Positions 1,640 to 17,720 of a DNA stretch of 32,000 nt are shown here, one piece after another. A program made the translations under genes and the position numbers. The stretch spans positions 1 to 32,000 of the forward strand of contig JBCBUL010000007.1 in assembly GCA_039818165.1 (NCBI GenBank), read 5' to 3'. The notes beneath the pieces are model-generated. The model was not told the origin of the DNA. It ran no database searches and saw only the letters and a list, made by a program, of their open reading frames with translations. This stretch comes from Pseudomonadota bacterium. Lineage in GTDB: Bacteria > Pseudomonadota > Alphaproteobacteria > Caulobacterales > Hyphomonadaceae. Every line of letters begins with the position of its first letter. The first letter of the stretch is position 1.

Positions 1640-1696
1640 ATTGTCCTCCCCAGGCCAGGACGGCTCATTCCAGAGCCAAGGACAGGGGATGGACTC

Positions 1697-2203: not shown

Positions 2204-2212
2204 CGGAGCAGG

Positions 2213-3916
2213 CTACTCCTCGAACTCCCCAGGTTGGCTCTTGTCGATCACCGGATGCGCATGGTCCGGGTCGTCATTGGCTTTGTGCATTGCCACCACG
2301 ACGCCGGACAGGGCAATGATCGCAATGAGGTTCGGGAAGGCCATGGAGGCGTTGGCAATGTCGCCGAGCAGCCAGAGATAGTCCGTATAATCGGTAGCCA
2401 ACGTACCAAGAAACACGACGATCACCCATAAATATCGGAACGGGTGTGTCGCCCACTCTCCAATCAAATAAGTGACAGCTTGTTCGCCGTAGTACGACCA
2501 GCCAATAATTGTTGTGAAGGCAAAGAAGAACAGCGCCACCGGAACGATGAAGGCCCCAACCACTGGTATTGCCTCAGCATAAGCTCGTGTCGTGATCGCG
2601 GACGAGCTCGCGTCGGTTTCCCAAGCATGTTTCACATCTATCAGAACGTTGGGGTCGCTGGCTGCGGCCAGGGAGTTCGCCGGCACATCGATGCCTGTCG
2701 CGGCACAGGATGTCAGATAGGATGCGGCGAGCGCGCCATTGTCGGCGATTTTCTCCTCGCGTTCCTCTTCATAAGCGCTTGGGAACAAATCGCCCACGGT
2801 GAGTTCCCCTGGCAGGGCGACGCCCGCATCTGCACACACATTGGCGGTGATCAGGGATGGGCTACGCTTGAAGTCACCTTGTACAGTAAGGATCACCAGC
2901 GCTGTCATGGTGCAGATGATGATCGTGTCGATGAAGACACCGATCATGGCGATTTCGCCTTGCATAACTGGGTTTTTCGTCTGCGCCGCCGCGTGGGCAA
3001 TCGGCGCTGAGCCCTGGCCCGCTTCGTTTGAGAAGAGGCCCCGGGCGATACCGAACCGCACCGCTTGCATCATGCCGTAACCCGCTGCGCCGCCAACGGC
3101 CTCGCGGAATCCGAACGCTGAGGTGATGATCTCCATGAATGCGCCTGGAACCAGCGGCGCGTTCACGACCAGCACGCAAAAGGCGATCAATACATAAAGC
3201 GCTGCCATAACGGGCACGACCTTGCCCGCCACGCTGCCGATAGATTTGATACCGCCAATGATGACGGCAAACACAAGGACGGCGATGACAATGCCGAACG
3301 CCCAGTTGGGAATTCCGAGCCCTATCTGGTTGTTGGAAAGCTCCATGGCCGCTTCTGTGATGGAATTCGCCTGGATCATGGAGCCGGTCGCCATGGCAGA
3401 GAACAGCGTACCGAGACAGAAGATGACTGCGAGCCAGCCCCAGCCCTTTCCGAGGCCATTCTTGATGTAATACATCGGCCCGCCATTGATGCGGCCATAT
3501 TCATCGGTCTCACGATATTTCAACGCGAGGGAGCTTTCGGAGAAGGCCAGCGCCATGCCGAAAAGCGCTGTCACCCACATCCAGAAGATCGCGCCAGGGC
3601 CACCAAGGGTGAGCGCGGTCGCTACGCCAGCGAGATTGCCCGTGCCGACCTGGCCTGAGAGAGCAGTTGAGAGGGCCTGCCAGGGCGTGATGGCCCCGTC
3701 TTCACCCTGCGCCTTACGGCCGTCCCATACCTCTTTGAGGGCGGGGACAAAGCGCATGAGCGGGCGCGCGCCAATCCGCACCATCATGAATAGACCCGTT
3801 CCGAGCAAGACGATGGCCAGTGGGCCGATCTGGTAAGGGAAAATAACGGTATCCCCCCAGGTGCCGCCCCAAATCAGGCCAGATACGTTCTGAATAACAC
3901 CAACAATCGATTCCAA
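2213..3916 (-). CDS. Alanine/glycine:cation (sodium) symporter, AGCS family
   Basis: ITPWQALSTALSGQVGTGNLAGVATALTLGGPGAIFWMWVTALFGM, FSNEAGQGSAPIAHAAA and FAFTTIIGWSYYGE are hallmark AGCS motifs. Multi-TM protein of 567 aa. Confidence 0.9.
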   Translation of the reverse strand: MESIVGVIQNVSGLIWGGTWGDTVIFPYQIGPLAIVLLGTGLFMMVRIGARPLMRFVPALKEVWDGRKAQGEDGAITPWQALSTALSGQVGTGNLAGVATALTLGGPGAIFWMWVTALFGMALAFSESSLALKYRETDEYGRINGGPMYYIKNGLGKGWGWLAVIFCLGTLFSAMATGSMIQANSITEAAMELSNNQIGLGIPNWAFGIVIAVLVFAVIIGGIKSIGSVAGKVVPVMAALYVLIAFCVLVVNAPLVPGAFMEIITSAFGFREAVGGAAGYGMMQAVRFGIARGLFSNEAGQGSAPIAHAAAQTKNPVMQGEIAMIGVFIDTIIICTMTALVILTVQGDFKRSPSLITANVCADAGVALPGELTVGDLFPSAYEEEREEKIADNGALAASYLTSCAATGIDVPANSLAAASDPNVLIDVKHAWETDASSSAITTRAYAEAIPVVGAFIVPVALFFFAFTTIIGWSYYGEQAVTYLIGEWATHPFRYLWVIVVFLGTLATDYTDYLWLLGDIANASMAFPNLIAIIALSGVVVAMHKANDDPDHAHPVIDKSQPGEFEE

Positions 3917-4056
3917 AGGCTCGCTCCCAGCCAGGTTTGTTTACAGTTTCGCGACACAGTAAGGGCGCGCGCGATAATGCCAAGCGCCAAGGCACAATTC
4001 TGCTCTTGTGTGGCATGATTGCGCATGTGTTGATGGGGCAATGCGGAGGATGCGGC

Positions 4057-4731
4057 ATGAAACGGCTCTACCATTGGTCGCTGGACCCCGTGGCACGCAC
4101 GGCAAGGCTGGCCCTGGCGGAAAAACGCATCGGTTTTGAAGAGGTGGAAACGCGTCCCTGGGCCGTGCATCCAGATATGGAACGCCTCGGCCCCGGCGCG
4201 GCGCCACCTGCCTTCATCGACTCGGGCGGCGAAGGACGGATCACACTGCTCGGTTCCCACGCTCTGATTGAGTATCTTGATGACGCGTATCCCAATCCAA
4301 GGCTGATCCCCGCTGGCCACCAGGACGCAGCCGAAACCCGGCGCCTGTGGCGCTGGTGCGAGGACAGTTTCCAAGTTGTGACGGAGACCTTGCTGGCCGA
4401 AAGAACGGCCCAGTGGGTGCGCCGCGACCGTGAGCCGGACTCCGGGGCGCTTCGCAAAGGCGCCCATGCCCTGCGTGGGCGATTGACGTTTCTCAACGCG
4501 CTGACGGAGACGCGCTCCTACGTGGCTGGACGCCATCTCTCCGTGGCGGATCTCGCCGTCGCAGCGCATCTGTCCAGCCTTGATTATTTTGGCGATGTGG
4601 ATTGGAGCGCCGTCGCAGATCTTCGCGCCTGGTATGCCCGGCTGAAGTCGCGGCCGTCCTTCCGCAGTCTGTTGAGCGACCGGATCGAGGGAACCCGGCC
4701 GTCCGCACATTATACAAACCTGGATTTCTAG
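4057..4731 (+). CDS. Glutathione S-transferase family protein
   Basis: The N-terminal thioredoxin-like part (MKRLYHWSLDPVARTARLALAEKRIGFEEVE) and the C-terminal helical part (YVAGRHLSVADLAVAAHLSSLDYFG...WYARLKSRPSF) fit the GST fold. Start is the ATG at 4057 with GGAGGA 7 nt upstream. The track's upstream 40 codons were rejected. Confidence 0.75.
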   Translation: MKRLYHWSLDPVARTARLALAEKRIGFEEVETRPWAVHPDMERLGPGAAPPAFIDSGGEGRITLLGSHALIEYLDDAYPNPRLIPAGHQDAAETRRLWRWCEDSFQVVTETLLAERTAQWVRRDREPDSGALRKGAHALRGRLTFLNALTETRSYVAGRHLSVADLAVAAHLSSLDYFGDVDWSAVADLRAWYARLKSRPSFRSLLSDRIEGTRPSAHYTNLDF

Positions 4732-5228
4732 ACGGCGATATTTTCAAGCGGCACGGCCGTCGTGCGCTTCGCCACACGAATGATTATCCGCGACTGGACA
4801 TCTGACACCAGCCCTGACCCGAGTAGCTTTGCCCGCAGAAACTCGTCATAAGCGTGCATGTCAGTGGTCAACACATGGATGATGTAATCGACAGCGCCGG
4901 TCACCGTCATGCAGTCTGTGACCTCAGGCCAGTCCTGAACGAGGGTCTCGAACGCTTCGAGATTCTCCCGGCTGGGCAGCGAAAGCTTCACGTTCGCCAC
5001 CACTTCAAAGTCCAGCCCCAGCTTTTGCGTGTCCAACAAGGTCACCCGGCGCGTGATGATACCGGTCTCCTCCATCCGCTTGATCCGGCGCCAGCAGGGC
5101 GAGGATGACAGACCTACCTGGTCTGCAATATCGGCGACGGACAGGGCGGCATCATCCTGGATCAGAGCCAGAATGCGTGTGTCGATGGGATCCAAGTCTT
5201 GCGCCAATTTATTCCCCTCATTGATCAT
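4728..5228 (-). CDS. Lrp/AsnC-family transcriptional regulator
   Basis: LDPIDTRILALIQDDAALSVADIADQVGLSSSPCWRRIKRMEETGII is the HTH_AsnC motif. The C-terminal RAM/AsnC_trans_reg part is present (VTGAVDYIIHVLTTDMHAYDEFL). Confidence 0.9.
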   Translation of the reverse strand: MINEGNKLAQDLDPIDTRILALIQDDAALSVADIADQVGLSSSPCWRRIKRMEETGIITRRVTLLDTQKLGLDFEVVANVKLSLPSRENLEAFETLVQDWPEVTDCMTVTGAVDYIIHVLTTDMHAYDEFLRAKLLGSGLVSDVQSRIIIRVAKRTTAVPLENIAV

Positions 5229-5331
5229 TTAGAGGCATAGAAGACCGCAACTCTCCGGATATCAACACCCCTGAGCAAGATCATCCGGGGCTTGAGAGGA
5301 CGGACCTCCAAATTGAGACAAAATTGTCACA

Positions 5332-6918
5332 TTATTCGGCCAGGCGTTGCTCGATCAGGCTCGCCGTTTCCGCCGGTCCATAAAGCGCGGCGAAACTGCC
5401 GAACCGCGGACCTTGGGCCGCGCCGAGCAGAAGTTCATAGAGCGCCTTGAACCAGTCGCGAAGATTTTCGAACCCATGATCCTTACCGACGCTGAATGTG
5501 AGCGTCTGAAGCGCTTCGGGATCAACCTCTTCTGCCGCCCGCAGGCGCGCGGCCAAATCTGCCATAGCCGCGCGCTCCTGATCGCTCGGGGCACGGTAGG
5601 CTTTTGTCGGCTTTACGAAGTCGCCATAGTAGCGAATGGCATAGCCGACCAAATGATCCAGCAAGGGATGGGACTCACGCGTGGCACCGGGCGCATAGCG
5701 AGCGATGAAGGCCCAGAGCGTGTCCGCGTCCTCCGCATTTGCGGCGCTGACAAGATTCAGCAAGAGCGCGAAACTGATCGGACTCGCCTGTTCCGGTACA
5801 TCGCCCGAATGGATATGCCAGACGGGGTTTTCCACTTGCCGCTCCGGCGTCTCACCAGGGTACTTCTCCAGAAATGTGAGATACTCATCCACGGCCTTTG
5901 GGATCACGTCGAAATAGAGCTTCTTGGCCGTCCGGGGCTTTTGGAACTGGAAGAGCGAAAGACTCTCGGTTGGTGCATAGGCCAGCCATTCCTCCACTGA
6001 GATGCCATTGCCTTTGGTCTTCGAGATCTTCTCGCCTTGTTCATCGAGAAACAGCTCGTAGACATATTGCTCCGGCGGGCGGTGGCCGAGGATGCGGCAG
6101 ATTTTGGAGTAGATCGGCGCATTGGCCTGGTGGTCCTTGCCGAACATTTCGAAATCCACGCCAAGCGCGGCCCAACGCATTCCGAAGTCGGGCTTCCATT
6201 GCATTTTTACATGACCACCCGTTACCGGCAGGGTCACGTCCGATCCGTCCTCATCCTCAAACGTGATTGTGCCTGCCTTGGCATCCGTGGCCTTCATGGG
6301 GACGTAGAGCACGCGGCCCGTGGTCGGTGAAATAGGCAGGAAGGGCGAGTATGTGGCCTGGCGCTCGGCCCCCAGCGTCGGAAGCATGACAGCCATTATG
6401 TCATCAAATTTTTCGAGTGCGCGCAGGAGCGTAGGGTCAAAGGTCCCGTCTTTGTAGCAGTCCGTGGCCGAGAAGAATTCATACTCGAAGCCAAAGCTGT
6501 CCAGGAAGGCACACAGGCGCGCGCCCATATGCGCGCCATAATTGTCATGTGTTCCGAACGGGTCGGGTACCGCCGTCAGAGGCTGTTGAAGATAAGGTTC
6601 CAGGGATTCGGGGTTCGGAACCGTGGGCGGCACTTTCCGCATCCCATCCATATCATCGGAGACGCAAAGCAACCGGGTCGGGATATCGCCGCCGGTCAGC
6701 GTCTGGAACGCATTGCGCACCATTGTGGTGCGGACAACTTCGCCAAACGTGCCGATATGTGGCAGCCCGGATGGGCCATACCCTGTCTCAAAGACAACTG
6801 GCGCTCCCGACTCGCGTTGGCCAGCTTTCTCCATCTGGTCGACCCGTACCTTCAACTTGCGCGCCAGCTCGAAGGGCCAGGCTTTGGCATCTTGGGCGAG
6901 GGCAGCGAGATCAGTCAT
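5332..6918 (-). CDS. lysK: Lysyl-tRNA synthetase, class I
   Basis: [11 protein letters not shown]...[24 protein letters not shown] (HIGH-type motif) and [15 protein letters not shown] (KMSKS-like) are typical of the class I LysRS found in Alphaproteobacteria. Start is moved to the ATG at 6918 ([16 protein letters not shown]). The 70 upstream codons of the track ORF look non-coding. Confidence 0.92.
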
Positions 6919-7005
6919 GGCGAGGGCGGCTTTCAAGAAACGACGGCTGGATGCAGGGGCGTAGATAGGGCGCGATATCCGGTCAAGCGAGCTCAATGGA
7001 AAGAT

Positions 7006-7041
7006 ATGTCGAAAAAGTTTGACATGTCGAAAATATTTGAC
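7006..7041 (+). repeat. Two tandem 18-bp direct repeats in the lysK / membrane-protein divergent intergenic region
   Basis: ATGTCGAAAAAGTTTGAC (7006-7023) and ATGTCGAAAATATTTGAC (7024-7041) are 16/18 identical. Each unit carries TGTC-N10-GACA-type partial dyad symmetry and a TTGAC(A/C) -35-like hexamer. Confidence 0.7.
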
Positions 7042-7046
7042 CATAT

Positions 7047-7068
7047 GGTGTACAAGATCTTTTACACC
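7047..7068. promoter_or_regulatory. 22-bp near-perfect palindrome, candidate operator of the downstream XRE regulator
   Basis: GGTGTACAAGATCTTTTACACC matches its reverse complement at 20/22 positions. It ends 3 bp before the SD (AAAGGAGAA) of the 7082 gene. Confidence 0.5.
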
Positions 7069-7081
7069 AAAGGAGAACGCG

Positions 7082-7507
7082 ATGTCGTTCCGCGAACAAT
7101 CTGCATGGGCTATGGGCCTTATCCTCACGGTTGCCGGGCTGCTCTACTTCGGCAAAGTCTTCGCTGCGAGCCAAGCGCTTGGCGCCACCGCACCGCCAAT
7201 CATCGCATTTGTTGTGATTTATGTTGTTCTGGTGGTGATTGCTTCGATCATTGTCATGTCGCCTTTGGCGGCCTTCCAGGCCGAGGCGGCCAACGCCCCC
7301 GCCGATGAGCGCGAGCGGATCATTCTGAACCAGGCCAGAAACTGGGCCGGCTACGTTCTGGCCTTCGGTGTGGCGACGGGCCTGTTCCACTTCTGGGTCC
7401 AGAGGGATGGTAACATGCTGTTCCACATCGCCTTTGCGAGCCTGATGGCGAGTCAGATCAGCGAATACGCTTTTCAGATTTTCCTCTATCGTCGGGGACA
7501 TGCCTGA
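7082..7507 (+). CDS. Small integral membrane protein (4 predicted TM helices), function unknown
   Basis: ATG at 7082 with AAAGGAGAA upstream. Four hydrophobic stretches are visible ([60 protein letters not shown]). TGATG stop/start overlap with the following XRE gene. Confidence 0.7.
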
Positions 7508-7734
7508 TGGCCAAGCGCCCGCCAATCACCAACCGCGTGCGCGAACTGCGCGAGGCCCACGGCAATATGAGCCAGGCGGCCCTGGCAAAGGCCATAGGTG
7601 TCACCCGCCAAACAGTGATTGCCATCGAGCAGGGGAAATACTCGCCCAGCTTGGAAAGCGCCTTCCGAATCTCACGCGTTTTCGGCGTTGGCCTTGAAGA
7701 TGCCTTCGGCTGGGCGCCCTCCGAGGACGGCTAG
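7507..7734 (+). CDS. XRE-family helix-turn-helix transcriptional regulator (short, y4mF/YozG-like)
   Basis: ITNRVRELREAHGNMSQAALAKAIGVTRQTVIAIEQGKYSPSLESAFRISRVFGVGLEDAF is a textbook HTH_XRE domain. 75 aa. Confidence 0.88.
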   Translation: MAKRPPITNRVRELREAHGNMSQAALAKAIGVTRQTVIAIEQGKYSPSLESAFRISRVFGVGLEDAFGWAPSEDG

Positions 7735-7758
7735 AATGCGATTCAGTCGCAAAAGTAT

Positions 7759-7788
7759 TTGACACTCATTCGCATTTGAGTCTCTAAT
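7759..7788 (+). promoter_or_regulatory. Sigma70-type promoter candidate for bfd (TTGACA-N18-TCTAAT)
   Basis: TTGACA at 7759-7764 and TCTAAT at 7783-7788. The predicted TSS is about 7795-7797, i.e. at the bfd ATG (7797). No SD is visible upstream of that ATG. Confidence 0.45.
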
Positions 7789-7792
7789 TGCG

Positions 7793-7811
7793 AACGATGA
7801 TCATTTGCGTT
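7793..7811. promoter_or_regulatory. Fur-box-like palindromic site overlapping the bfd start
   Basis: GAACGATGATCATTTGCGT contains the perfect palindrome ATGATCAT. The core CGATGATCATTTGC matches 10/14 to TGATAATCATTATC of the classical Fur box. Flanking TTCGCA (7769-7774) and TGCGAA (7789-7794) form another inverted repeat. Confidence 0.4.
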
Positions 7812-7997
7812 TGCCGCCGTTTGAATGAAGAAGCCGTCCGCGAGGCCGTTCGCGCCGGCGCAGGGTCGCCGAAAGCGGTCCAGGCCCACCATGGCTGCCA
7901 ATTCAATTGCGGGAAATGCAAACCGGCCATGGCTGACATCGTTGCGAGTGAACAACGCCAACTGACTGAGGGCGCTATGCATGTCGCTGCTGAATAG
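7797..7997 (+). CDS. bfd: Bacterioferritin-associated ferredoxin (Bfd, [2Fe-2S])
   Basis: MIICVCRRLNEEAVREAV...HHGCQFNCGKCKPAMADIV shows the C-x-C...C-x2-C Bfd signature. It lies directly upstream of bfr. ATG 7797 is preferred to the track's TTG at 7788. Confidence 0.85.
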   Translation: MIICVCRRLNEEAVREAVRAGAGSPKAVQAHHGCQFNCGKCKPAMADIVASEQRQLTEGAMHVAAE

Positions 7998-8118
7998 CGA
8001 TTGAGACTGCAACTGCGTTTCAAATTCACAACTTCCTGTTTTAATTGGCTTTTCTATTGTCGCTCGGGGAGAGTCGGCCTAGTTCGGCCGTGTGAGCGAA
8101 CCTTTTAGGAGACCGGCC

Positions 8119-8610
8119 ATGAATGGCGATCAAGAAATTCTCGATTATCTGAATGCGGCGCTGAAAAATGAGCTGACCGCGATCAATCAGTACTTCCTGC
8201 ACTCGCGCATGCTCAAGGATTGGGGCGTCTCAATCCTCGCGGAGTATGAGTACAAGGAATCCATTGAAGAAATGGAGCATGCAGACTGGCTGATTGAGCG
8301 TATCCTCTTCCTGGGCGGACTGCCGAATTTGCAGGACCTTGGCCGTTTACGCATTGGCGAAAGCGTCAGGGAAATCCTGGAATGCGACCTTGCGCTCGAA
8401 AACGACGCCATCCCGCTGCTGCGAGACGCGATGGAAGCCAGCGAGAAAAAGCGCGACTACGTTTCCCGCGACCTGTTCGGCAAGATCCTCACCAATGAGG
8501 AGGAGCATCTGGACTATCTGGAAACCCAGTTTGAGCTCATCGACCGCGTCGGCATCGAAAACTATACGCTGTTGCAGTCTGCACCAAACGGCAGCCAGGC
8601 GCAGGACTAG
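8119..8610 (+). CDS. bfr: Bacterioferritin
   Basis: MNGDQEILDYLNAALKNELTAINQYFLHSRMLKDWG...ESIEEMEHADWLIERILFLGG...EEEHLDYLETQ carries the ferroxidase-centre residues and the haem-ligand Met context. ATG at 8119 with AGGAGA upstream. Confidence 0.95.
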   Translation: MNGDQEILDYLNAALKNELTAINQYFLHSRMLKDWGVSILAEYEYKESIEEMEHADWLIERILFLGGLPNLQDLGRLRIGESVREILECDLALENDAIPLLRDAMEASEKKRDYVSRDLFGKILTNEEEHLDYLETQFELIDRVGIENYTLLQSAPNGSQAQD

Positions 8611-8616
8611 CCTGAC

Positions 8617-8883
8617 CTAAGCAGCTCGGCGCTCATCCACAATCTCAGACAGGGTGACGCCGAGTTCGCCATCGGCGATCACCAGACGACCCCGCGCCAT
8701 AAGCCGGTCAGACACATAAATATCCACGTCGTCTCGCGTGTCGTTCTGCAGCGCCACCACATCGCCCGGCGCGAGGGCCAGCAATTCCTCAACCGGCATG
8801 CGGACGTCTCCCAGAACCACGTCGACCCGCACGGGCACATCCATCAGCTTGCGCTCGAGGGCAGGATTGGCGGCATGAGTCAT
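8617..8883 (-). CDS. fliN: Flagellar motor switch protein FliN (SpoA domain only, 88 aa)
   Basis: VPVRVDVVLGDVRMPVEELLALAPGDVVALQNDTRDDVDIYVSDRLMARGRLVIADGELGVTLSEIV matches the FliN/SpoA C-terminal domain pattern. It is the last gene of a fliF-fliG-x-fliN chain. Confidence 0.85.
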   Translation of the reverse strand: MTHAANPALERKLMDVPVRVDVVLGDVRMPVEELLALAPGDVVALQNDTRDDVDIYVSDRLMARGRLVIADGELGVTLSEIVDERRAA

Positions 8884-8907
8884 GGAATGGGGCTCCGAAA
8901 ACGCAGA

Positions 8908-9333
8908 TTACCGTCCAGATGTGTCTGTCAAAGATTTACAAGCGGCAAACAAATCGCCCTGACCATCGGCAAGGGATTGCGCCGCACGCTCGGCAACCGG
9001 AACCAACGTGGGTGGCACCTGCCCCATGCGGGCGGCAAGGTCGAGGGCGACGGCGAGCTCCGACAATTGTTCCATGGCCGCTGAAAGGCGCTCCGCAGCG
9101 CTTTCAATCCGTTTGGCTATGGCATCATCAATGGGTGCACGGGCCGCTTCTGTCGCCTGCGCCTGTAGCTGAGCGCCAAGGGCGGCGATCTCCATCACGG
9201 GCAGAGTGACGGTGTCCTCGTCGATCGAGGACGGGGCGGTCTGCACGGGAGTTTCGACAGGGGCTTTGCCCGGCGCGGAGAAATCCGAATGGAAATCAAA
9301 AGCGCGAAACTGGGTGATCTGACGCCGGCTCAT
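8908..9333 (-). CDS. Hypothetical flagellar-operon protein in the FlbE/FliH position (141 aa, Ala/Glu-rich, predicted helical)
   Basis: The call is positional only. It sits between fliG and fliN like flbE in the Caulobacter fliF operon, and its start overlaps the fliG stop (ATGA at 9330-9333). I recognised no diagnostic motif. Confidence 0.55.
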   Translation of the reverse strand: MSRRQITQFRAFDFHSDFSAPGKAPVETPVQTAPSSIDEDTVTLPVMEIAALGAQLQAQATEAARAPIDDAIAKRIESAAERLSAAMEQLSELAVALDLAARMGQVPPTLVPVAERAAQSLADGQGDLFAACKSLTDTSGR

Positions 9334-10271
9334 TCCACGAGCTCGTCATCATCGCTGGGTGTCCCCAGAAGAATATCTCCGGAGTGGATCAGCTGACGCG
9401 CGGTTTCGACAATGGCGGCACGTGCAGTCTGGACATCGGAGGCACGAATAGGCCCCATCGCCTCAATTTCCTCACGGATCAGCGCACCGGCCCGACGCGT
9501 GAGATTTGAATAGAACGCGTTGCTCACTTCAGGCGTACTGGCTTTCAGAGCTTTGATCAGCGTCTCGCGGGGCATTGCGGCGATGAGGGTCTGCATACCC
9601 GCCGCATCCAATGCGACCAGATCATCAAACGTGAACATCAGTGCGCGAACACGCTCACCCGCCCCCGGCGCAGACGCGTCGAGTTGGGTCAGAAGTCCGC
9701 TATCCTGGCACGGATCAAGTTGATCAAAAATACGCGCCAGACGGGCATGACCATCCATATCCGCGGTCGTCCCGACACGGTCCAGCGTTTGTGCCAGCGA
9801 TGTCTCAATGAGATCGCATACTGCTTTTGGTGGGCTCTTGGCATTCAGAATGCGCTTGAGAATGGCCAGGCTCACATCCTCACTCAGCATACGAACAACA
9901 CCAGCCGCCAGCTGGGGGTCCAGTTGGCTGATCAGCCACGCCGAGACTTGCGGGCTCTCCCGGCCGGCGAGGGCCGCAAGCAGAGGCGCGTGGGCTTTGG
10001 ACAACCGTCCCCAAACGCCCGGGCGCTCGGGCGTCGGTGTGTCAATTCGGGTTTTTGCGGTTTCGAGGAGAAACGCCTCGAGCGCGGAACGGTCCGCATC
10101 AGAATGATCAGTTGGCAGATGATCCATCTGCTGGTGGATGGCGCGGGTCTCCCCGGGTGTCAATTGGGCGAACACCATGTCTGCGCCAGACCCGGCTGCG
10201 CGCAGCAATTGAGCCACAGCGCGCAAACCGCCGGGATGCGATGATCCACGCAGGGCGTCGGGCGGGGTCAT
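9330..10271 (-). CDS. fliG: Flagellar motor switch protein FliG
   Basis: N domain: LRAVAQLLRAAGSGADMVFAQLTPGETRAIHQQM. Middle domain: ESPQVSAWLISQLDPQLAAGVVRMLSEDVSLAILKRI. C domain: MFTFDDLVALDAAGMQTLIAAMPRETLIKALKAS...NLTRRAGALIREEIEAMGPIRASDVQTARAAIV. ATG at 10271 overlaps the upstream stop (ATGA). Confidence 0.9.
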   Translation of the reverse strand: MTPPDALRGSSHPGGLRAVAQLLRAAGSGADMVFAQLTPGETRAIHQQMDHLPTDHSDADRSALEAFLLETAKTRIDTPTPERPGVWGRLSKAHAPLLAALAGRESPQVSAWLISQLDPQLAAGVVRMLSEDVSLAILKRILNAKSPPKAVCDLIETSLAQTLDRVGTTADMDGHARLARIFDQLDPCQDSGLLTQLDASAPGAGERVRALMFTFDDLVALDAAGMQTLIAAMPRETLIKALKASTPEVSNAFYSNLTRRAGALIREEIEAMGPIRASDVQTARAAIVETARQLIHSGDILLGTPSDDDELVE

Positions 10272-10915
10272 GTATCGATCACCCGAGACCCAAGCCAACG
10301 GCGCACAATTTGTGTCGCGCGGGCGGGATCTTCAGAAATGCGTTGGGCGATCAGATTGTGGGCGGCACTACGGTCAACCGGAGAGCTATCCTGAGGTTTA
10401 ACTGACTGCCGGAGAGACTGTTCGTTTCGAGCCGGCTGTGGCACCGGCGTCTCCACAGCCATGGCCGCGCCAATCAGTATACAAAGCGAGACGAGCGCGA
10501 ACACTTCAAGAAGCGCAGCACGATTTGGCAAGCCGCCCGTTGCACTGGCAAAGGCGACACGATCGAACGTTACGGTATCGCCAGCCACCGTATCGACAAA
10601 TACCGCTGACGTCAGAAGCTGGGTCAACGCCGCATCGCCCGGATCGGCATTGCTGGCTTGGGTATTGATCATCACCAGAAACGCCCGGCTCTCATCCGGG
10701 CGCAGCGCTTGGTGAACCTGAACCTGCCCCTGGCCCAAAACGGTTTCCAAAAGCCCGGTCAGTCTCTGTTCAAGCGGGGAAGCGCCCACCATCTGGGCAG
10801 GCGGCTGTGGATTGGAAAAGGCTGTCGCCGCGCGCAGTCCGGTCAGCCCGAGCGCCAGGACAAGCGCCAAGGCCAGCCAGACCGTGCGTCGGTTCATACT
10901 GGCGGCTGACATCAT
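10268..10915 (-). CDS. fliF: Truncated-architecture FliF-like MS-ring protein ('mini-FliF', 216 aa; 231 aa if started at 10963)
   Basis: Layout: TM1 (VWLALALVLALGLTGL), then one RBM-like unit (LEQRLTGLLETVLGQGQVQVHQAL...AFLVMIN...LTQLLTSAVFVDTVAGDTVTF), then TM2 (LLEVFALVSLCILIGAAMAV), then a cytoplasmic tail ending ISEDPARATQIVRRWLG like the FliG-binding C-terminus of FliF. Start 10915 has GGAG 7 nt upstream; alternatives are 10963, 10912 and 10897. Confidence 0.7.
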   Translation of the reverse strand: MMSAASMNRRTVWLALALVLALGLTGLRAATAFSNPQPPAQMVGASPLEQRLTGLLETVLGQGQVQVHQALRPDESRAFLVMINTQASNADPGDAALTQLLTSAVFVDTVAGDTVTFDRVAFASATGGLPNRAALLEVFALVSLCILIGAAMAVETPVPQPARNEQSLRQSVKPQDSSPVDRSAAHNLIAQRISEDPARATQIVRRWLGSRVIDT

Positions 10916-10980
10916 CGCGGCACTCCACAGCGGTGCACCGGAACGTTCCGGCGCTCGCCACAAAGCCTTAAGCCGCCACG

Positions 10981-10996
10981 GTAAATCCGCCCTTAA
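10981..10996 (-). promoter_or_regulatory. CtrA-box-like site upstream of mini-fliF
   Basis: The minus strand reads TTAA-GGGCGGA-TTTAC, an 8/9 match to TTAA-N7-TTAAC. It is centred about 74 bp upstream of the 10915 start. Confidence 0.4.
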
Positions 10997-11029
10997 TCAT
11001 CGCGACGTGTGCCCCTGCGACGACTAAAC

Positions 11030-11296
11030 CTAACGGTACTGCTGAAGGCGCGTTGCGCGCAGTCCTTTGGTGCCGTGGGCACTGTAGAGGCGTTGCCATC
11101 CGGAGAATTCTTCCTCTGACAGTCCATAGCGCTCCAGGGCGTCTTCCAACGTCAGCAATCCACCCTGCACAGCGGCCACAACTTCGGCCTTGCGGCGCGT
11201 CACCCAGCGGGTGATCGACGGAGGGGGGAGGTCATCAAGGGTGAGCGCGCGGCCGTTGGGTCCGCTGACACTCGACGAGGCATTCTGCTGTTCCAT
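11030..11296 (-). CDS. sciP: CtrA inhibitor SciP (DUF1153 family small HTH protein)
   Basis: GPNGRALTLDDLPPPSITRWVTRRKAEVVAAVQGGLLTLEDALERYGLSEEEFSGWQRLYSAHGTKGLRATRLQQYR closely follows the SciP/DUF1153 pattern as I remember it. Start at ATG 11296 (MEQQ...); the track's 21 upstream codons were rejected. Confidence 0.8.
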   Translation of the reverse strand: MEQQNASSSVSGPNGRALTLDDLPPPSITRWVTRRKAEVVAAVQGGLLTLEDALERYGLSEEEFSGWQRLYSAHGTKGLRATRLQQYR

Positions 11297-11392
11297 CTTG
11301 GTCGTCCTGCACATTCTAATGGACGGCAGGGCCATTCTGGCTCTGCTCCACGCCAGCAATACACGTCGGGCTTTAAGGCTCGGCTGAGGGAG

Positions 11393-11426
11393 ACCATGCA
11401 GTTTTCAGTAAAATTGCATGGGTTTT
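11393..11426 (+). other. 7-bp inverted repeat with T-run (orphan terminator-like hairpin or protein-binding dyad)
   Basis: CCATGCA (11393-11399), N14, TGCATGG (11414-11420), followed by GTTTTT. No + strand gene lies upstream of it. Confidence 0.3.
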
Positions 11427-11493
11427 TCATCGACACGTTTGATCTTGGGTAGGACGATGCGTATGCCCCCGCAGGTACGCAGGAGAAAAAGCC

Positions 11494-12498
11494 ATGCGAA
11501 ACAGGATCCAGCGCTGGGTATCTCCCCTGATCGGCCTGGGGATGGTGACGTTTTGTGCTTCAACAGCCTTCGCTGAGACGACCCCAGGCGTGATCTCTCT
11601 CACATCCGAAAACGACCTGTTTGGCGGCACGGATCGAAACTACTCGAATGGTATTCGCATCGAACGCGTCAGCGGCGCAGACAGGGTTTTTCCGCTTTTA
11701 CGCGAAACAGCCGAGCTGATCCCGGGACTGAATCTGGAGCGGGTCAAACTGCGCCAGGGATTCGCCCTGTCCCACGCCATCTACACACCGGAAGACATCT
11801 CAACACCGGACCCCGACCCAAATGACCGACCATATGCAGGTTGGCTGAGCGTTTCGGGCACCGTGGTCGCCAGCGATGAGGACACCCAGGATGCACTGCA
11901 GCTGAACCTCGGAATTGTCGGGCCGTCCGCGGCAGGAAAATTTGTCCAGACGAACTGGCACGAATTGATCAACGGCGTGGAGCCCGAAGGCTGGGACAGC
12001 CAGCTCAAGGACGAGCCCGGAATCGAACTGATTGTCCAAAGGCTTCAGCTATTCGATGGGCCGGACTTACCCTTCGGCCTCAAAACCGACTATGGCCTCC
12101 ACATCGGCGGCGCGCTTGGCAATGTGCGAACCTATGCGGCAGCCGGAGGAATGGCGCGGATTGGGTTCGACCTCAACGCCGACTTTGGGCCACCGCGCAT
12201 TCGTCCGGCCTTGAGCGGCGCGGGCGTCTTTCGACCTGACCAACCCCTTGGCGGATATCTCTTTGTCGGCATGGATGCGCGCGCCGTTGCCCGGGATATT
12301 TTCCTCGATGGCAACACTTTCCGCGACAGCCCATCCGTCAGTGACCGGCGCGACTTTGTCGGTGATGTCCAGGCGGGCGTAGCCTTGCACTATAAAGCGC
12401 TCCAAGTGTCGTTCACCTATGTGCACCGCACGGAGCAGTTTGTTGCCCAGGACGGTCCGCAGCGTTTCGGCGCCATATCGATCGCAATCGCCCAGTAA
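11494..12498 (+). CDS. LpxR-family (DUF2219) outer-membrane protein, putative lipid A 3-O-deacylase
   Basis: Signal peptide (VTFCASTAFA/ETT). SENDLFGGTDRNYSNGIRIE is the characteristic N-terminal motif of the LpxR/DUF2219 family. The remainder is beta-rich. Confidence 0.7.
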   Translation: MRNRIQRWVSPLIGLGMVTFCASTAFAETTPGVISLTSENDLFGGTDRNYSNGIRIERVSGADRVFPLLRETAELIPGLNLERVKLRQGFALSHAIYTPEDISTPDPDPNDRPYAGWLSVSGTVVASDEDTQDALQLNLGIVGPSAAGKFVQTNWHELINGVEPEGWDSQLKDEPGIELIVQRLQLFDGPDLPFGLKTDYGLHIGGALGNVRTYAAAGGMARIGFDLNADFGPPRIRPALSGAGVFRPDQPLGGYLFVGMDARAVARDIFLDGNTFRDSPSVSDRRDFVGDVQAGVALHYKALQVSFTYVHRTEQFVAQDGPQRFGAISIAIAQ

Positions 12499-12557
12499 AT
12501 CGAATGCGGCATGGGCGCAGATTGACAGTGTGTCACCTCTCAGTCATCACACGCGTA

Positions 12558-12724
12558 GATGGTGCGGCTGGAAACAGCCGCTAAGAGGGAAGCCGGTGGA
12601 AATCCGGCGCTGTGCCCGCAACTGTCAGCCGGGAGCTGATGGCCACAAAGCCACTGGTGTTTCCTTTGGAAACGTTGGGAAGGCGGCCAAAGGCCTGGAT
12701 CGGTGAGCCAGGAGACCTGCCATC
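12558..12724 (+). promoter_or_regulatory. Cobalamin (B12) riboswitch
   Basis: The B12-box core AGGGAAGCCGGTGGAAATCCGGCGCTGTGCCCGCAACTGTCAGCC is present. Downstream are GCCACTGG...GGGAAGGC and GAGCCAGGAGACCTGCC. P1 is GATGG (12558-62) with CCATC (12720-24). It lies upstream of a TonB-dependent receptor. Confidence 0.9.
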
Positions 12725-12879
12725 GCGTCGTTCGCTCAGGGCCCGGGACCAGGCCAGGGGAGCGAGGTTGCGATCATCGCACCTTTGAAACGACACCGTG
12801 CACGCTGCCGGAGCTTGGGGCCGGGACAGTGTGCTGAGATTGGTGTTGTGCGCTGCCGGCCCGGCGCGGAGGATATGCG

Positions 12880-14823
12880 ATGTTGAAACAATCGCTGATT
12901 TTGAGTGCTGCGACGCTGATGTTAACGGGCGTTGCAGCCGGACAAGTGACAACAGAAGCGGACGCGGACACCCCCTGCCTGACCGGAAATGAAGCCGGTT
13001 GCGAAGATTGGATTATGGTGGGCACACGCCTGCAAACGGTGACGGTGTCTGGCCTGCGTCCAGTCGCGGTCAATGATGTGACAGGTAGCCTGACGGTCTT
13101 GAGCGGTGCGGACCTGGACCTTCGCTCAGCGCCTTTTCTTGCAGACGAATTGCGCGCTGTGCCTGGGGTTGGCGTGTCGCGATCCGGCGCGCAAGGCGGG
13201 CTGACGCAAATCCGCCTGCGCGGCGCCGAAGCAAACCACACACTGCTCCTCATCGACGGTATCGAAGTGTCCGACCCAACGACGGGCGAGAGCGATTTCG
13301 GTGTGTTCGCCGGGTTGCGGCCCCAAAGCATCGAAGTGCTGCGGGGCGAACAGAGCGGGCTGTATGGCTCTGATGCCATCGGCGGAGTGATCAATGTGGT
13401 GACGGGTGAGCTGCCCGGGCCACTCGGACGGGTCGAGGTTGGCTCCCAATCCTCTTTCCGGGGAGAGGCGGGCTATGGATTCGTCTTTGACGAAGGGCAC
13501 CTCAACCTCGCAGCGACGACCTTCTCGACCGGCGGTGTCGACACATCTGGCCTCGGCGGTGAAGAGGATGGCTCGGAGCTTTCCACGGCCACGGCGTCTG
13601 GGCGGGTGGATCTGTCAGGCGACTGGACCCTGGCAGGGTTGGTACGGTTTTCAGAGGGTGAATTAGAAACCGATCCCGACACCGACTTCGACGGACGACT
13701 GAATGATGCGGACCGCGTAACCGAGAGCGAACAGCTGACCGCTGGCGTCAGCCTCGCCGGCGAAGCGTTCGGCATTGATCACCTCCTACGCGCAAGCTTC
13801 AATTCGGTTGAGCGAGACAATTTCGCCGATGGCGCGCTCTCCAACAGGTCCGAGGGTGAGCGTACCAAATTCGGCTACAGCCCGAGCATTCAGGCAGCGC
13901 TTACCGATGCGCATATCACGCTGACCGGGCTCATCGAGTACGAAAACGAGGACTATTCGGCCCGCGACACGCAGTTTGGAGGCGCAACCGATCAGGACCA
14001 GAGTTTCGAGACGCTGGGGCTGGCTGGGGACGTGCAGGCCGATTTCGATGCGCTGCAACTGTCGGCGTCCATCCGTTTCGATGACAATGATGGCCGGTTT
14101 GACGATGCCGTCACCGGCCGGATCGGCGCAGCGTTCACGACCTATGCGGCGGGGCGCTTTCGCGCAAGCATCGGGACGGGCGTGAAAAACCCGACCTTTA
14201 CCGAACTGTTCGGCTTCTTTCCGGGCAGCTTTGTCGGCAATCCGGACCTGGTGCCTGAAGAATCCACCAGTTGGGAAATTGGCTGGGATGGCGCCTTTGG
14301 CCCGCTGGACCTTTCGGCAGCCTATTTCGATGCGCAGCTGACAGATGAAATCTTCACGGACTTCAATCCGGATTTCACGGCCACAGCGCGCAACCGCGAA
14401 GGCGAAAGCGAACGCTCCGGCGTGGAACTGGGCGCACGCTGGCAGGCAACTTCGGCGTTGAGCATCGCCGGGCAAGCCACATTCACCGAGTCCAGCTCAG
14501 AGGATGGCAGCGACGAAGTCCGGGTCCCCTCCGAAACCGCGAGCCTGGCCCTCGACTACCGGCCCGCTGACTGGAAGGGCGGGCGCATTGGCGTCGCATT
14601 TGATTATGTCGGCGAGCAGGACGATTTCGATTTCGCGGCATTCCCCGCCGCCCGCGTTACGCTGGACAGTTACGTGCTTGCCAGCGCAACGCTGGAAGTG
14701 CCGATGGGTGAGCGATTGGCGTTTACCCTGCGCGGGGAAAACCTGTTCGATGAAGATGCAACCGATGTCTTCGGGTTCACCTCGCCGGGTGCGGGTCTGT
14801 TTGTTGGAATAAAGGTCCGGTAA
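12880..14823 (+). CDS. btuB: TonB-dependent outer-membrane receptor, cobalamin-type (BtuB)
   Basis: Signal peptide, then plug-domain motifs (LRAVPGVGVSRSGAQGGLTQIRLRGAEANHTLLLIDGIEVSDP, IEVLRGEQSGLYGSDAIGGVINV). 647 aa, preceded by a B12 riboswitch. Confidence 0.88.
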   Translation: MLKQSLILSAATLMLTGVAAGQVTTEADADTPCLTGNEAGCEDWIMVGTRLQTVTVSGLRPVAVNDVTGSLTVLSGADLDLRSAPFLADELRAVPGVGVSRSGAQGGLTQIRLRGAEANHTLLLIDGIEVSDPTTGESDFGVFAGLRPQSIEVLRGEQSGLYGSDAIGGVINVVTGELPGPLGRVEVGSQSSFRGEAGYGFVFDEGHLNLAATTFSTGGVDTSGLGGEEDGSELSTATASGRVDLSGDWTLAGLVRFSEGELETDPDTDFDGRLNDADRVTESEQLTAGVSLAGEAFGIDHLLRASFNSVERDNFADGALSNRSEGERTKFGYSPSIQAALTDAHITLTGLIEYENEDYSARDTQFGGATDQDQSFETLGLAGDVQADFDALQLSASIRFDDNDGRFDDAVTGRIGAAFTTYAAGRFRASIGTGVKNPTFTELFGFFPGSFVGNPDLVPEESTSWEIGWDGAFGPLDLSAAYFDAQLTDEIFTDFNPDFTATARNREGESERSGVELGARWQATSALSIAGQATFTESSSEDGSDEVRVPSETASLALDYRPADWKGGRIGVAFDYVGEQDDFDFAAFPAARVTLDSYVLASATLEVPMGERLAFTLRGENLFDEDATDVFGFTSPGAGLFVGIKVR

Positions 14824-15638
14824 TGGCTTGGCGGGCCGCACTTCTACCCGTCATTTGGTTGGCAGCGGCCTGCGGGTCGCCCCAGCCAGCGCCGGAACGG
14901 TCGGCCACGCCAACGCGCATCGTAAGCCTTGATTATTGCGCAGACCAGTTTGTGCTCAAATTTGCCGATCCGAGTGACATCCTCGCTGTCTCGCCCGATG
15001 CCGGGAAAGACTTCTCGTTCATGCGCGAGGCCGCGGCAGATGTGGCCCGGGTGCGCCCATCAGCGGAGGACGTTCTTCTTCTGAAGCCGGATCTCGTGGT
15101 GCGAGCTTATGGCGGCGGACCGGGTGCAACAGCCCTTTTCGAGCGCGTGGGGATCCCAGTGCTGGAAGTGGGATGGTCCCCCGATCTGGAGGCCGTCAGA
15201 ACGAATACGCTGCGCGTGGCAAAGGGCCTGGGCCAGGCAGATCGGGGCGTCGAAGTGGTGGAAGATTTCGATGCACGGATAGCAGAAATAAATTCCGCGG
15301 AGACGGCAACGGCGCTCTACGCCACGCCCGGTGGTGCAACCACGGGACCGGGCGGGCTCATCGGCGAAATTTTGGAACAGGCGAACCTAGACAATTTCAT
15401 TGAAACGCCTGGCTGGCAAACCCTCCCTCTCGAGCGATTGGCATATGAAGGGCCGGATGTGTTTGTTTTCGCCGATTTCGAAGGCGGTGCTGGCCCCTGG
15501 AGTGCGGCACGCCACAGCGTTTTCCGAAACCGTATGGACGCTGCTGAGGTGCGCGAGATCGAAGGCGCATGGACGGCTTGCGGTGGCTGGTTTGTCATCG
15601 AAGCTATTGAAACCCTGACGGAGACATGGGCGCCATGA
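14823..15638 (+). CDS. btuF: Periplasmic-binding protein of a cobalamin/iron-complex ABC importer (BtuF-like), predicted lipoprotein
   Basis: Lipobox LAAAC at residues 13-17. RIVSLDYCADQFVLKF...LKPDLVV is typical of class 8 PBPs. TAATG overlap with the btuB stop. Confidence 0.75.
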   Translation: MAWRAALLPVIWLAAACGSPQPAPERSATPTRIVSLDYCADQFVLKFADPSDILAVSPDAGKDFSFMREAAADVARVRPSAEDVLLLKPDLVVRAYGGGPGATALFERVGIPVLEVGWSPDLEAVRTNTLRVAKGLGQADRGVEVVEDFDARIAEINSAETATALYATPGGATTGPGGLIGEILEQANLDNFIETPGWQTLPLERLAYEGPDVFVFADFEGGAGPWSAARHSVFRNRMDAAEVREIEGAWTACGGWFVIEAIETLTETWAP

Positions 15639-16627
15639 CCCGGGCTGACTGGCTCATACCCGGCCTGGCCGCTGCCTGTGTCTTCGCACTCTTTCTGGCC
15701 TGCCTCTTGGGCTCAACACCAATGGGACTGGATAGGGTGTTCGCGGCGCTGCTTGGCGGGGGTGAGCCCGGCGACCGGACCGTGATCTGGGAGATTCGAC
15801 TCCCACGTGCTCTGGCCGCCTTCCTTGTGGGCGCCGCCCTGGGTGTGAGCGGAGCCGCCTTGCAGGGTCTTTTGCGAAACCCCTTGGCGGAACCCGGCGT
15901 GCTCGGCGTTTCGGCGTCCTCAGCGCTGACGGCAACCGTCTCAATTTATTATGGAATGGCGGCGCTAACGCCTTGGATGCTTCCCCTGGCGGCGATCGTT
16001 GGAGCGCTTCTGGCCACAGGACTGTTGGCTTTTGCCGCCATCAAAACACAATCGGTCGTCACGCTGATCCTGATTGGGGTAGGTCTTTCGAGCTTTGCAG
16101 GCGCGTTGATGAGCCTGCTCATGAATTTGGCACCCAACCCGTTCACCCTGTCAGACATGGTCAGCTGGATGCTTGGCTCTGTCGCCAATCGCAGCCATTC
16201 TGACATCGCTTTCGCAGCCCCTTTCCTGGCACTCGGAGCCGGAGTCCTGCTGGCGACACGTCGGGGCCTTTCCGCGCTCACCCTCGGTGAAGAGGCTGCC
16301 GCCGGATTGGGGCTAAATCTTCGAAACCAACGCATATTCACCGTCTTGGGCGCGGGGCTGGCCACCGGGGCGTCCGTAGCGCTCGCCGGGGCCATAGGGT
16401 TCGTCGGCATTGTTGCCCCCCATCTGGTGCGCCCACTGGTAGGCCATGACCCGGCTCGCACACTGCTTCCATCGGCGCTTCTTTCCGGACTGATCCTCGT
16501 TCTGGCCGATATTGCCGTGCGTTTGCTGCCCACCAGCCAGGAGTTGAAACTGGGTGTGGTTGCCGCGCTGATCGGCGCCCCGGCCTTTATTTGGATCGCC
16601 ATGCAAAGGCGGGCGCTCAATGACTGA
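15626..16627 (+). CDS. btuC: FecCD-family ABC permease (BtuC-like)
   Basis: IWEIRLPRALAAFLVGAALGVSGAALQGLLRNPLAEPGVLGVS and GAIGFVGIVAPHLVR are FecCD signatures. It overlaps both neighbours. Confidence 0.85.
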   Translation: MGAMTRADWLIPGLAAACVFALFLACLLGSTPMGLDRVFAALLGGGEPGDRTVIWEIRLPRALAAFLVGAALGVSGAALQGLLRNPLAEPGVLGVSASSALTATVSIYYGMAALTPWMLPLAAIVGALLATGLLAFAAIKTQSVVTLILIGVGLSSFAGALMSLLMNLAPNPFTLSDMVSWMLGSVANRSHSDIAFAAPFLALGAGVLLATRRGLSALTLGEEAAAGLGLNLRNQRIFTVLGAGLATGASVALAGAIGFVGIVAPHLVRPLVGHDPARTLLPSALLSGLILVLADIAVRLLPTSQELKLGVVAALIGAPAFIWIAMQRRALND

Positions 16628-17559: not shown

Positions 17560-17720
17560 GGCAAAGTCCTTTTGTTCGTTTTGAGACGCATTCTCACAAA
17601 GCGATAACAGGTTTTGCGTATAATGCAACTCATTCTCAATGATGACCCTTTTCGTCTCCCGCCTCTAGCAGGTAGGGGCCGAGTTCTGATCAATCGGTTC
17701 TGGCGCCAGCGTGCGGCGGC

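Follow-up and report, generated by a model that had tools for sequence, protein, structure and literature searches.

The 32,000-nucleotide window analyzed here (positions 1 to 32,000 of contig JBCBUL010000007.1, assembly GCA_039818165.1, a Pseudomonadota bacterium of the Hyphomonadaceae) carries on its minus strand a short gene that we term mini-fliF. It lies directly behind sciP and is followed by genes for a FliG paralogue, a small helical protein (X) and FliN (Table 1). Profile comparison and structure prediction describe the product of mini-fliF as a first transmembrane helix (TM1), the core of ring-building motif 3 (RBM3) from which the β-collar is excised, a second transmembrane helix (TM2) and a FliF-type tail that is predicted to bind FliG. 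The open reading frame (ORF) 10268..10963 is intact and encodes 231 aa when read from a TTG at 10963, the start used in a first-pass annotation of the sequence. The frame stands, but the start most likely has to be moved to the ATG at 10915, giving 215 aa, since a search of 5.8 billion proteins gave 8 close homologues, all of which measure 212-219 aa and align from this internal Met-Met, and a GGAG precedes it. The equivalent position in the related loci L001 and L010 reads GTGGAG. The longest possible frame begins 66 bp downstream of the sciP stop, a distance that had been noted correctly. Identification of the neighbor as the CtrA inhibitor SciP is supported by NCBIfam (NF051866 CtrAInhibSciP, 129.9 bits with a cut-off of 100) and Pfam (DUF1153, E 4e-37), and the true sciP start probably lies further inside the longest ORF. 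At its other end mini-fliF overlaps the start of the FliG homologue by 4 nt (ATGA).

Table 1. Features of the mini-fliF locus (window positions; residues are those of the 215-aa protein)
Feature	Position	Strand	Description
sciP	11030..11359	-	CtrA inhibitor SciP, DUF1153; longest ORF
CtrA-box-like motif	10982..10996	-	TTAAGGGCGGATTTA, TTAA-N7-TTTA; sciP–mini-fliF spacer; presumed class II-type promoter element
Shine-Dalgarno GGAG	10923..10926	-	7 nt 5' of ATG 10915; read from sequence
mini-FliF coding sequence	10268..10915	-	215 aa plus stop
TM1	10814..10891	-	residues 9-34; AF2 helix; hydrophobic WLALALVLALGLTGL, RR in front
Periplasmic RBM3 core, αββαβ	10538..10783	-	residues 45-126; β-collar insertion absent; hhalign, AF2, Foldseek
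TM2	10457..10522	-	residues 132-153; AF2 helix; aligned to FliF TM2 region by hhalign
Cytoplasmic tail, predicted to bind FliG	10277..10372	-	residues 182-213, two helices, ends ...QRISEDPARATQIVRRWLG; hhalign
FliG paralogue	9330..10271	-	313 aa; start overlaps mini-FliF stop (ATGA); Pfam FliG_M + FliG_C
X	8908..9333	-	141 aa, helical; start overlaps FliG stop (ATGA); FliH/FlbE position
FliN	8617..8883	-	88 aa, FliMN_C domain only; Pfam FliMN_C E 1e-21

The AlphaFold2 (AF2) model of mini-FliF, built on a deep alignment, has a predicted local distance difference test score (pLDDT) of 83 overall and of 89-97 in the periplasmic domain. An earlier run on 9 sequences had given a pLDDT of 56 and Foldseek matches at noise level. 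In the model, a TM helix (9-34) is followed by α47-60, β65-71, β77-84, α94-104, β114-120, the second TM helix (132-153) and two C-terminal helices at 182-209. Two TM helices surround one periplasmic domain with a predicted N-in/C-in orientation, and the sequence has basic residues before TM1 and after TM2. The model and hhalign agree here with the first-pass annotation, which had described TM1, a single RBM-like unit, TM2 and a tail.

The nature of the periplasmic unit was resolved by comparing a 114-member alignment of the short family with a FliF alignment anchored on E. coli FliF. Hhalign places residues 78-213 on E. coli FliF 378-552 with a probability of 98.4% (E 6e-15). When the periplasmic part is aligned alone it splits, with residues 45-72 on FliF 239-265 and 78-126 on 378-433 (probability 94.8%, E 5.5e-8). 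The single gap of about 110 residues, E. coli FliF 266-377, lies exactly where the β-collar interrupts RBM3, and in the AF2 model a 5-residue turn joins β1 and β2. Profile comparison thus recovers the two ends of PF08345 (YscJ_FliF_C), which together make up the RBM3 core. For RBM1 and RBM2 (PF01514, YscJ_FliF) there was no hit at E values up to 1, and in the model the stretch between TM1 and the first RBM3 helix is only about 10 residues long. The earlier statement that RBM1 and the RBM3/β-collar are absent is therefore right for RBM1 and the collar, but the RBM3 core is present and it is RBM2 that is missing as well.

The same data bear on the idea that mini-FliF is an RBM2-based, SctJ-like protein with RBM3 deleted, as an alignment to RBM2 made by eye had proposed. 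RBM2 and RBM3 share the αββαβ fold, and PrgK, EscJ and FliF RBM2 chains are found among the weak Foldseek hits. However, placement on RBM2 (FliF 128-212) reaches an hhalign probability of only 0.3% (E 0.18) and falls far behind the split RBM3 placement. The HMMER alignments described below land on PF08345 and not on PF01514, members of the family carry PF08345 hits, and the alignment is collinear from RBM3 β2 via TM2 to the tail. We regard an RBM2 origin as highly improbable.

The FliF homology of mini-FliF surfaces only with family profiles. The window protein alone did not reach Pfam significance for PF08345, and neither the single protein nor a profile of 9 close family members retrieved a FliF from Pfam, NCBIfam or the PDB sequences. 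Searched against 1.84 billion representative proteins, this 9-sequence profile matched a handful of full-length FliFs (E 4e-6 to 1e-4) that carry both Pfam YscJ_FliF and YscJ_FliF_C. HMMER aligned two pieces: a helix-strand element, LExRLTGLLETVLGxGxVxVH, falls on the start of PF08345, and FLVLIN...AGDTVTF..F falls on its end, followed by TM2 and the tail motif DPxxAAxIVRRWL. Two members of the short family have precomputed PF08345 hits. In the Foldseek comparison with the PDB, FliF RBM3/collar chains (7cg7, 6scn, 8z5v), PrgK and EscJ rank first, with weak E-values (1.7e-3 at best; about 4e-3 to 2e-2 for PrgK and EscJ).

The conserved positions are those that are conserved in FliF. G61, F122, P197, R205 and W207 are near-invariant across the short family, and the close group additionally conserves G63 and G112-D113. 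The periplasmic residues G61/G63/G112-D113/F122 correspond to the FliF invariants G255/G257/G419-D420/F429. P197, R205 and W207 of the tail correspond to P536, R544 and W546 of E. coli FliF and are nearly invariant in the 114 members. The FliF-type C-terminal ending that had been seen by eye is hence borne out up to the last residue of E. coli FliF, and the tail has the features of the peptide that binds FliG_N; binding is predicted on these grounds.

Is the short gene a conserved form or the product of a local deletion? At least 134 representative clusters (50% identity) among the 1.84 billion representative proteins share it, nearly all of 205-235 aa, and more than 50 metagenome loci carry a short ORF of 214-260 aa, counted from stop to stop. 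Intact frames of constant length are found across more than 100 lineages whose identity has dropped to 20-30%, and relatives at 44%, 29% and about 25% identity keep the same gene order. The closest comparison is with locus L004, which shows 95% DNA identity and is collinear over 19.8 kb. Here, mini-fliF differs by 19 synonymous and 14 non-synonymous substitutions and by no indels. The ratio of non-synonymous to synonymous substitution rates (dN/dS) is 0.25 for mini-FliF, 0.075 for FliG, 0.12 for FliN, 0.61 for X (from few substitutions) and 0.04-0.10 for housekeeping neighbors. By eye, the replacements in mini-FliF lie mostly in the cytoplasmic linker. Mini-FliF is under purifying selection and is a conserved form, without local deletion or lesion. 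This agrees with the earlier view that it is not a long gene split by a frameshift, and the relatives carry the same short form, so that a recent deletion is not what we see. A tblastn search of plasmids with mini-FliF gave no match. Named relatives belong to Hyphomonadaceae, Hyphomonas and Henriciella, and the taxonomy of the family follows these names. Over 19.8 kb, window positions 1092-20916 are collinear with the contig JBCBGZ010000008.1 of a metagenome-assembled genome (MAG; Pseudomonadota bacterium J06616_19), with a nucleotide identity of 95%. This suggests that the two are very closely related and probably represent one species of uncultured marine alphaproteobacterium.

The partner genes are reduced in a similar manner, which goes beyond what had been noticed before. 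The FliG paralogue aligns over residues 13-302 with E. coli FliG 4-324 (hhalign probability 99.8%, E 1e-27) and thus spans the N, M and C domains. It stays below the NCBIfam FliG equivalog cut-off (110.9 against 226.7), and relatives are labeled by NCBI only as 'FliG C-terminal domain-containing protein'. The charged residues of the torque helix (K264, R281, D/E288, D/E289, R297) and the E-x-P-Q...R160 motif are kept in essentially all 58 members examined. By its domains, its EHPQR motif and its charged torque helix the 313-aa protein belongs to FliG. Protein X has no Pfam or PDB relatives. Its N-terminal F.F..DF..P motif is conserved and its C-terminal motif, DGQGDLF or more generally DGQG(D/E)LF, is invariant; it also contains a coiled coil. 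Residues 1-116 of X align with the first 115 residues of the protein that occupies the FliH position in canonical loci (probability 90.5%, E 1.4e-6), and this 214-263-aa protein in turn aligns with E. coli FliH (94.3%, E 9.5e-8). A direct comparison of X with E. coli FliH was not significant, and the link runs only through the alphaproteobacterial FliH. Most probably, X corresponds to FliH's N-terminal half and lacks the portion to which the FliI ATPase binds. The FliH similarity accounts for the N-terminal part of X only, and no counterpart was found for the DGQG(D/E)LF motif. FliN scores 76.3 against an NCBIfam cut-off of 84.05.

A metagenome scan seeded with the alignment of the module's FliG, and sorted with hidden Markov models built in this analysis, yielded 80 loci. 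More than 50 of them have the order SciP–mini (214-260 aa, stop-to-stop)–FliG–X–FliN, and in most of these, genes for an FlhF-like GTPase, a MinD-like ATPase and CtrA come next. About 20 have SciP–FliF (547-634 aa)–FliG–[FliH]–FliN–FlhF–MinD. We refer to the loci with the short gene as class A; sciP lies upstream of mini-fliF in every full-length class A locus. CtrA after the module is confirmed by an NCBIfam equivalog (414 bits, cut-off 350), while the FlhF-like GTPase is divergent (71 bits against an FlhF cut-off of 174). FlhF-like, MinD-like and ctrA genes follow the module in L008, L009, L012 and L016-L061, as at L012:14148-16817. They are not adjacent to it in L010, L013, L015 and the window; in the window, bfr and lysS take their place.

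Because short and full-length loci share their gene order, mini-fliF, between sciP and fliG like full-length fliF in about 11 canonical loci, fills the exact slot of fliF in the conserved alphaproteobacterial block. By this comparison the module is a reduced copy of the class II flagellar operon sciP–fliF–fliG–fliH–fliN(–flhF–flhG–ctrA). The FliGs beside the short gene form one clade (99/100 neighbor-joining bootstraps) apart from the FliGs beside long FliF, a pattern that speaks for one reduction event and a long diversification thereafter. The reduction is coherent, in that all parts in contact with the export gate, the rod or the ATPase are gone and all parts that build the rotor scaffold are kept. 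No other flagellar gene was found within ±10 kb in any class A locus examined.

The spacer between sciP and the short gene contains the CtrA-box-like motif (at most one mismatch to TTAA-N7-TTAA) in 7/7 of the first loci and in 29/29 distinct metagenome loci, and the equivalent motif precedes full-length fliF in 10/11 canonical loci. We estimate from base frequencies that chance alone would yield about 2 matches in the scanned 4.5 kb. Since the motif occurs far above this number, a class II-type promoter element is apparently retained upstream of mini-fliF. A second element, about 117 nt upstream of sciP (window ~11385-11405, minus strand), is the near-palindrome AATTTT-N4/5-(G)AAAAYT, which is followed by TGAAAC-N6-TTAA or a CCTTAAAGC element. 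It is also present in L001, L008, L009, L010 and L012 and is conserved in lineages like the window and like L008/L009/L012, with only 6 of 31 metagenome class A loci having it. It may be a regulator site or a promoter element.

With this context the module could be seen as a decaying relic that has no protein function and is kept only by its position between the essential genes sciP and ctrA. Large parts of FliF and FliH are gone, the module proteins score below curated family cut-offs, X has a dN/dS of 0.61, and the module is no longer beside flhF or ctrA in the window, L010, L013 and L015. One member of the short family (P0106, 250 aa) appears to be a copy that is frameshifted or decaying in a single lineage, as its N-terminal half aligns with the family and its C-terminal half is unrelated and Cys/Pro/Trp-rich. 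Against decay stand the constant-length frames across more than 100 diverged lineages, dN/dS values of 0.075-0.25 without indels, near-invariant residues that coincide with functional invariants of FliF, and the conservation of both ATGA coupling and promoter motif. Moreover, the module persists away from sciP/ctrA adjacency, and thus linkage to these genes cannot explain its retention. We consider a relic very unlikely.

In Hyphomonas the relation of the module to a real flagellum can be seen. The Hyphomonas sp. locus L013 reads APH–SciP–221 aa–FliG-like–144 aa–FliN. For H. neptunium, the CtrA study PMC7200025 lists HNE_1389 (COG3173), HNE_1390 (sciP), HNE_1391 (hypothetical), HNE_1392 ('putative FliG') and HNE_1393 (hypothetical). 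The same source describes a motility island, HNE_0239-0276, with fliL, fliF (HNE_0242), HNE_0243, fliN (HNE_0244), fliP and fliG (HNE_0246). Because the HNE_1390-1393 layout exists in addition to this separate island, the sciP-linked layout in Hyphomonas is a second set beside a complete flagellum encoded elsewhere. The canonical fliF of Hyphomonas, encoded away from the module, had not been part of the first-pass annotation.

This coexistence bears on two further explanations. According to the first, mini-FliF is the sole MS-ring protein of a working, highly reduced flagellum in the window organism. The FliG torque-helix residues are conserved, and no canonical fliF is visible within the 32-kb window. 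A 552-aa ORF (24736-26394), considered as a long fliF, turned out to be sulfite reductase. However, mini-FliF offers no RBM2 ring for the export gate and no collar for the rod, FliH is without its ATPase-binding half, class A loci have no further flagellar genes within ±10 kb, and Hyphomonas has a canonical FliF besides. There is, in our view, hardly any chance that this explanation is correct.

The second and main rival holds that the module is an accessory or regulatory part of the canonical motor encoded elsewhere. Mini-FliF could co-assemble with or seed the full-length MS ring, supply or titrate FliG, or mark the future pole together with FlhF/FlhG. In its favor, H. neptunium has the sciP-linked layout together with a complete motility island, all stator-facing charges and the FliM-binding motif are preserved in the FliG, most lineages have FlhF-like and MinD-like genes after the module, and the class II-type CtrA-box-like motif is retained. 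Small ring proteins with two TM helices that contact FliF are known, for example FlgV (PMC10655999); FlgV as a homologue of mini-FliF was considered and rejected. On the other hand, the module has its own full FliG, FliN and FliH N-terminal half rather than one adaptor. Judged from published MS-ring structures, a collar-less subunit that entered a canonical ring would interrupt the continuous β-collar with gaps. Adjacency to FlhF/FlhG is inherited from the ancestral operon and hence unspecific, and no motility phenotype is on record. An accessory role thus deserves serious attention, although we think it unlikely.

Mini-FliF is best compared with canonical FliF (E. coli b1938, 552 aa; PF01514 and PF08345). 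Both have two TM helices that flank a periplasmic region, the RBM3 core with its G-x-G, G-D and F residues, the D-P...R-x-W tail, and the slot between sciP and fliG with a CtrA-box-like motif. With 215 aa compared to 550-630 aa, mini-FliF is without RBM1 and RBM2 (~190 aa) and the β-collar (~110 aa) and has a shorter cytoplasmic linker. Two defining features of FliF, RBM1/2 and the collar, are missing, whereas three are kept. Without RBM1/2 and collar, mini-FliF cannot enclose the export gate or hold the rod. A full FliF role, in a functional MS ring that encloses the export gate and bears the rod, is unlikely because the domains that contact gate and rod are those that are missing.

Other reduced or small ring formers differ in their own ways. 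The short FliF of Chlamydiaceae (~330 aa), the one notable exception found in a survey of FliF architecture, is likewise reduced, has two TM helices and a shortened periplasmic part, and no flagellum is built with it (PMC4768692). As that study describes it, RBM2 is retained along with a second RBM-like unit, and the protein is joined to a FliG-M-like domain, whereas mini-FliF has the RBM3 core only, a free tail and a separate three-domain FliG next to it. SpoIIIAG and the isolated FliF RBM3 also consist of one membrane-anchored ring-building domain of the RBM3 type, but contain the β-insertion from which a barrel or collar is built, and which mini-FliF lacks. SpoIIIAG is anchored by a single TM helix, in contrast to the two TM helices of mini-FliF, and is without a FliG-binding tail; it was absent from the PDB sequence search and from the top 50 Foldseek PDB hits. 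SctJ/PrgK/EscJ are small inner-membrane ring formers of RBM folds and match mini-FliF weakly in Foldseek. SctJ has RBM1 and RBM2 homologous to FliF RBM1-2 and an N-terminal lipobox, and it does not bind FliG; mini-FliF has no Cys in its first 40 residues, no PF01514 hit and no acceptable RBM2 homology. The likeness to SctJ or SpoIIIAG drawn in the first-pass annotation therefore needs adjustment: SctJ is the less apt model, and a collar-less S-ring or SpoIIIAG-type RBM comes closer, as the retained unit is the RBM3 core. The hat-like structure related to the type III secretion system of flagella (PMC9380563) was also considered and set aside, since it is FliF-independent and occurs in many phyla not known to carry the short family. 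Full-text literature searches found no description of an RBM3-only mini-FliF.

A comparable arrangement exists outside this group. The locus L014:2318-5580 has an orphan short FliF (P0102)–FliG–FliM–FliN cluster in a dapA–bamC, gammaproteobacterium-like context, with no other flagellar genes within ~8-10 kb. P0102 (297 aa) has TM1, an RBM3 with an insertion of collar length, TM2 and a tail, and only PF08345 is recognized. It resembles mini-FliF in its order of TM1, RBM3, TM2 and tail beside switch proteins and away from export genes, and differs by its collar-length insertion, the presence of FliM, and the lack of a FliH remnant and of sciP. The L014 FliG branches outside the alphaproteobacterial clades, so that FliF was reduced here independently. 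This suggests that reduction to 'rotor-only' remnants may recur. In Rhodobacterales with fla1-type flagella, as in Phaeobacter inhibens (PGA1_c18790-c18800), a small conserved 'hypo' gene stands in front of an orphan, motility-essential fliG, in the layout purB–hypo–fliG (PMC12363192).

Apart from the module, the 32-kb window is without flagellar genes and encodes lysS, bfr, LpxR, a TonB-dependent receptor, a sulfate-assimilation cluster and similar functions. The 693-aa ORF at 27733-29814 on the plus strand is an artefact of a long upstream extension that overlaps cysG (27388-28779) on the opposite strand; its LysR helix-turn-helix and substrate domains are confined to residues 394-685.

In the flagellar motor, as cryo-EM work on MS rings has established, RBM3 forms the 34-fold S-ring, whose collar grips the rod, an inner ring of RBM2 surrounds the export gate, and the FliF tail docks into FliG_N; rings of isolated RBM2 and RBM3 are described in PMC8786727. 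Set against this background, we favor with moderate confidence the reading that mini-FliF is a reduced FliF at the head of a module for an MS/C-ring-like scaffold that has neither export function nor axle and exists beside, not instead of, a real flagellum. Mini-fliF is the first gene of an operon with translational coupling, which also supplies the FliG paralogue with its three domains, what is most likely the N-terminal half of FliH, and FliN. Mini-FliF would oligomerize through RBM3 into a flat ring in the inner membrane, and the tails of this ring would dock the FliG_N domains of the co-encoded FliG and so nucleate a cytoplasmic ring of FliG, FliN and the FliH N-terminus. The outcome would be a platform similar to the MS/C-ring without secretion or axle. 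The FlhF-like and MinD-like neighbors and the CtrA-box-like motif suggest that assembly may be polar and timed by the cell cycle, and the charges of the FliG torque helix would leave contact with stator units possible. Lost are RBM1/RBM2, which house the export gate, the β-collar, which holds the rod, and probably the FliH C-domain, which binds the FliI ATPase; what remains is the rotor scaffold, with RBM3 of the S-ring, the tail of FliF together with FliG_N, the FliG_M/C part and its charges that face the stator, and FliN plus the N-terminus of FliH. Homology, domain boundaries, conservation, synteny, purifying selection and the promoter motif were obtained here; ring formation, FliG recruitment, localization and the physiological role are what we infer.

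Several points weigh against this scaffold reading. Pfam and NCBIfam do not recognize mini-FliF, and mini-FliF and X are less constrained than FliG in the comparison with L004. A normal C-ring requires FliM, which the module does not have. Isolated Salmonella RBM3 forms rings alone (PMC8786727), but the published RBM3 rings include the collar, so that a ring of collar-less RBM3 would be an extrapolation. CtrA control of the short operon is plausible from the motif only. In H. neptunium a 744-bp CtrA chromatin immunoprecipitation (ChIP) peak is assigned to sciP (HNE_1390), and HNE_1391-1393 are placed outside the direct CtrA regulon with no separate ChIP peak assigned to them; HNE_1391-1393 rise together 1.5-2.1-fold in a divJ mutant, with weak p-values (PMC7200025 S6 and S10 Data). 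The membership of HNE_1391 in the short family is deduced from its layout and from L013, and for the window organism flagellar gene content was seen at the level of the contig neighborhood only.

A more far-reaching version of the scaffold reading can be put forward tentatively, and we hold it as a possibility rather than an expectation: one ancient reduction of the class II operon would have produced a self-standing RBM3-only ring in the inner membrane, a rotor without an axle, that carries a cytoplasmic ring of FliG, FliN and the FliH N-terminus, is devoid of secretion gate, rod and filament, and has a non-motility job parallel to the flagellum in a large clade of marine stalked or budding alphaproteobacteria. 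Such a job could be that of a CtrA-timed polar hub placed by FlhF/FlhG, or that of a stator-engaged sensor.

FliF has so far been treated as architecturally uniform, the Chlamydiaceae protein aside (PMC4768692). The short family appears to be a natural minimal construct of an RBM3 core and a FliG-binding tail, present in more than 100 lineages. It makes it possible to address whether a collar-less RBM3 can set the stoichiometry of a ring, whether the FliF tail and FliG are enough to template a C-ring-like assembly without FliM and the export apparatus, and what rotor proteins do once they are uncoupled from secretion and filament. It also provides an annotation for proteins now called 'hypothetical' (such as HNE_1391, by its layout) or 'FliG C-terminal domain-containing protein', and it calls for caution, as fliG or fliN alone in alphaproteobacterial MAGs is no proof of motility.

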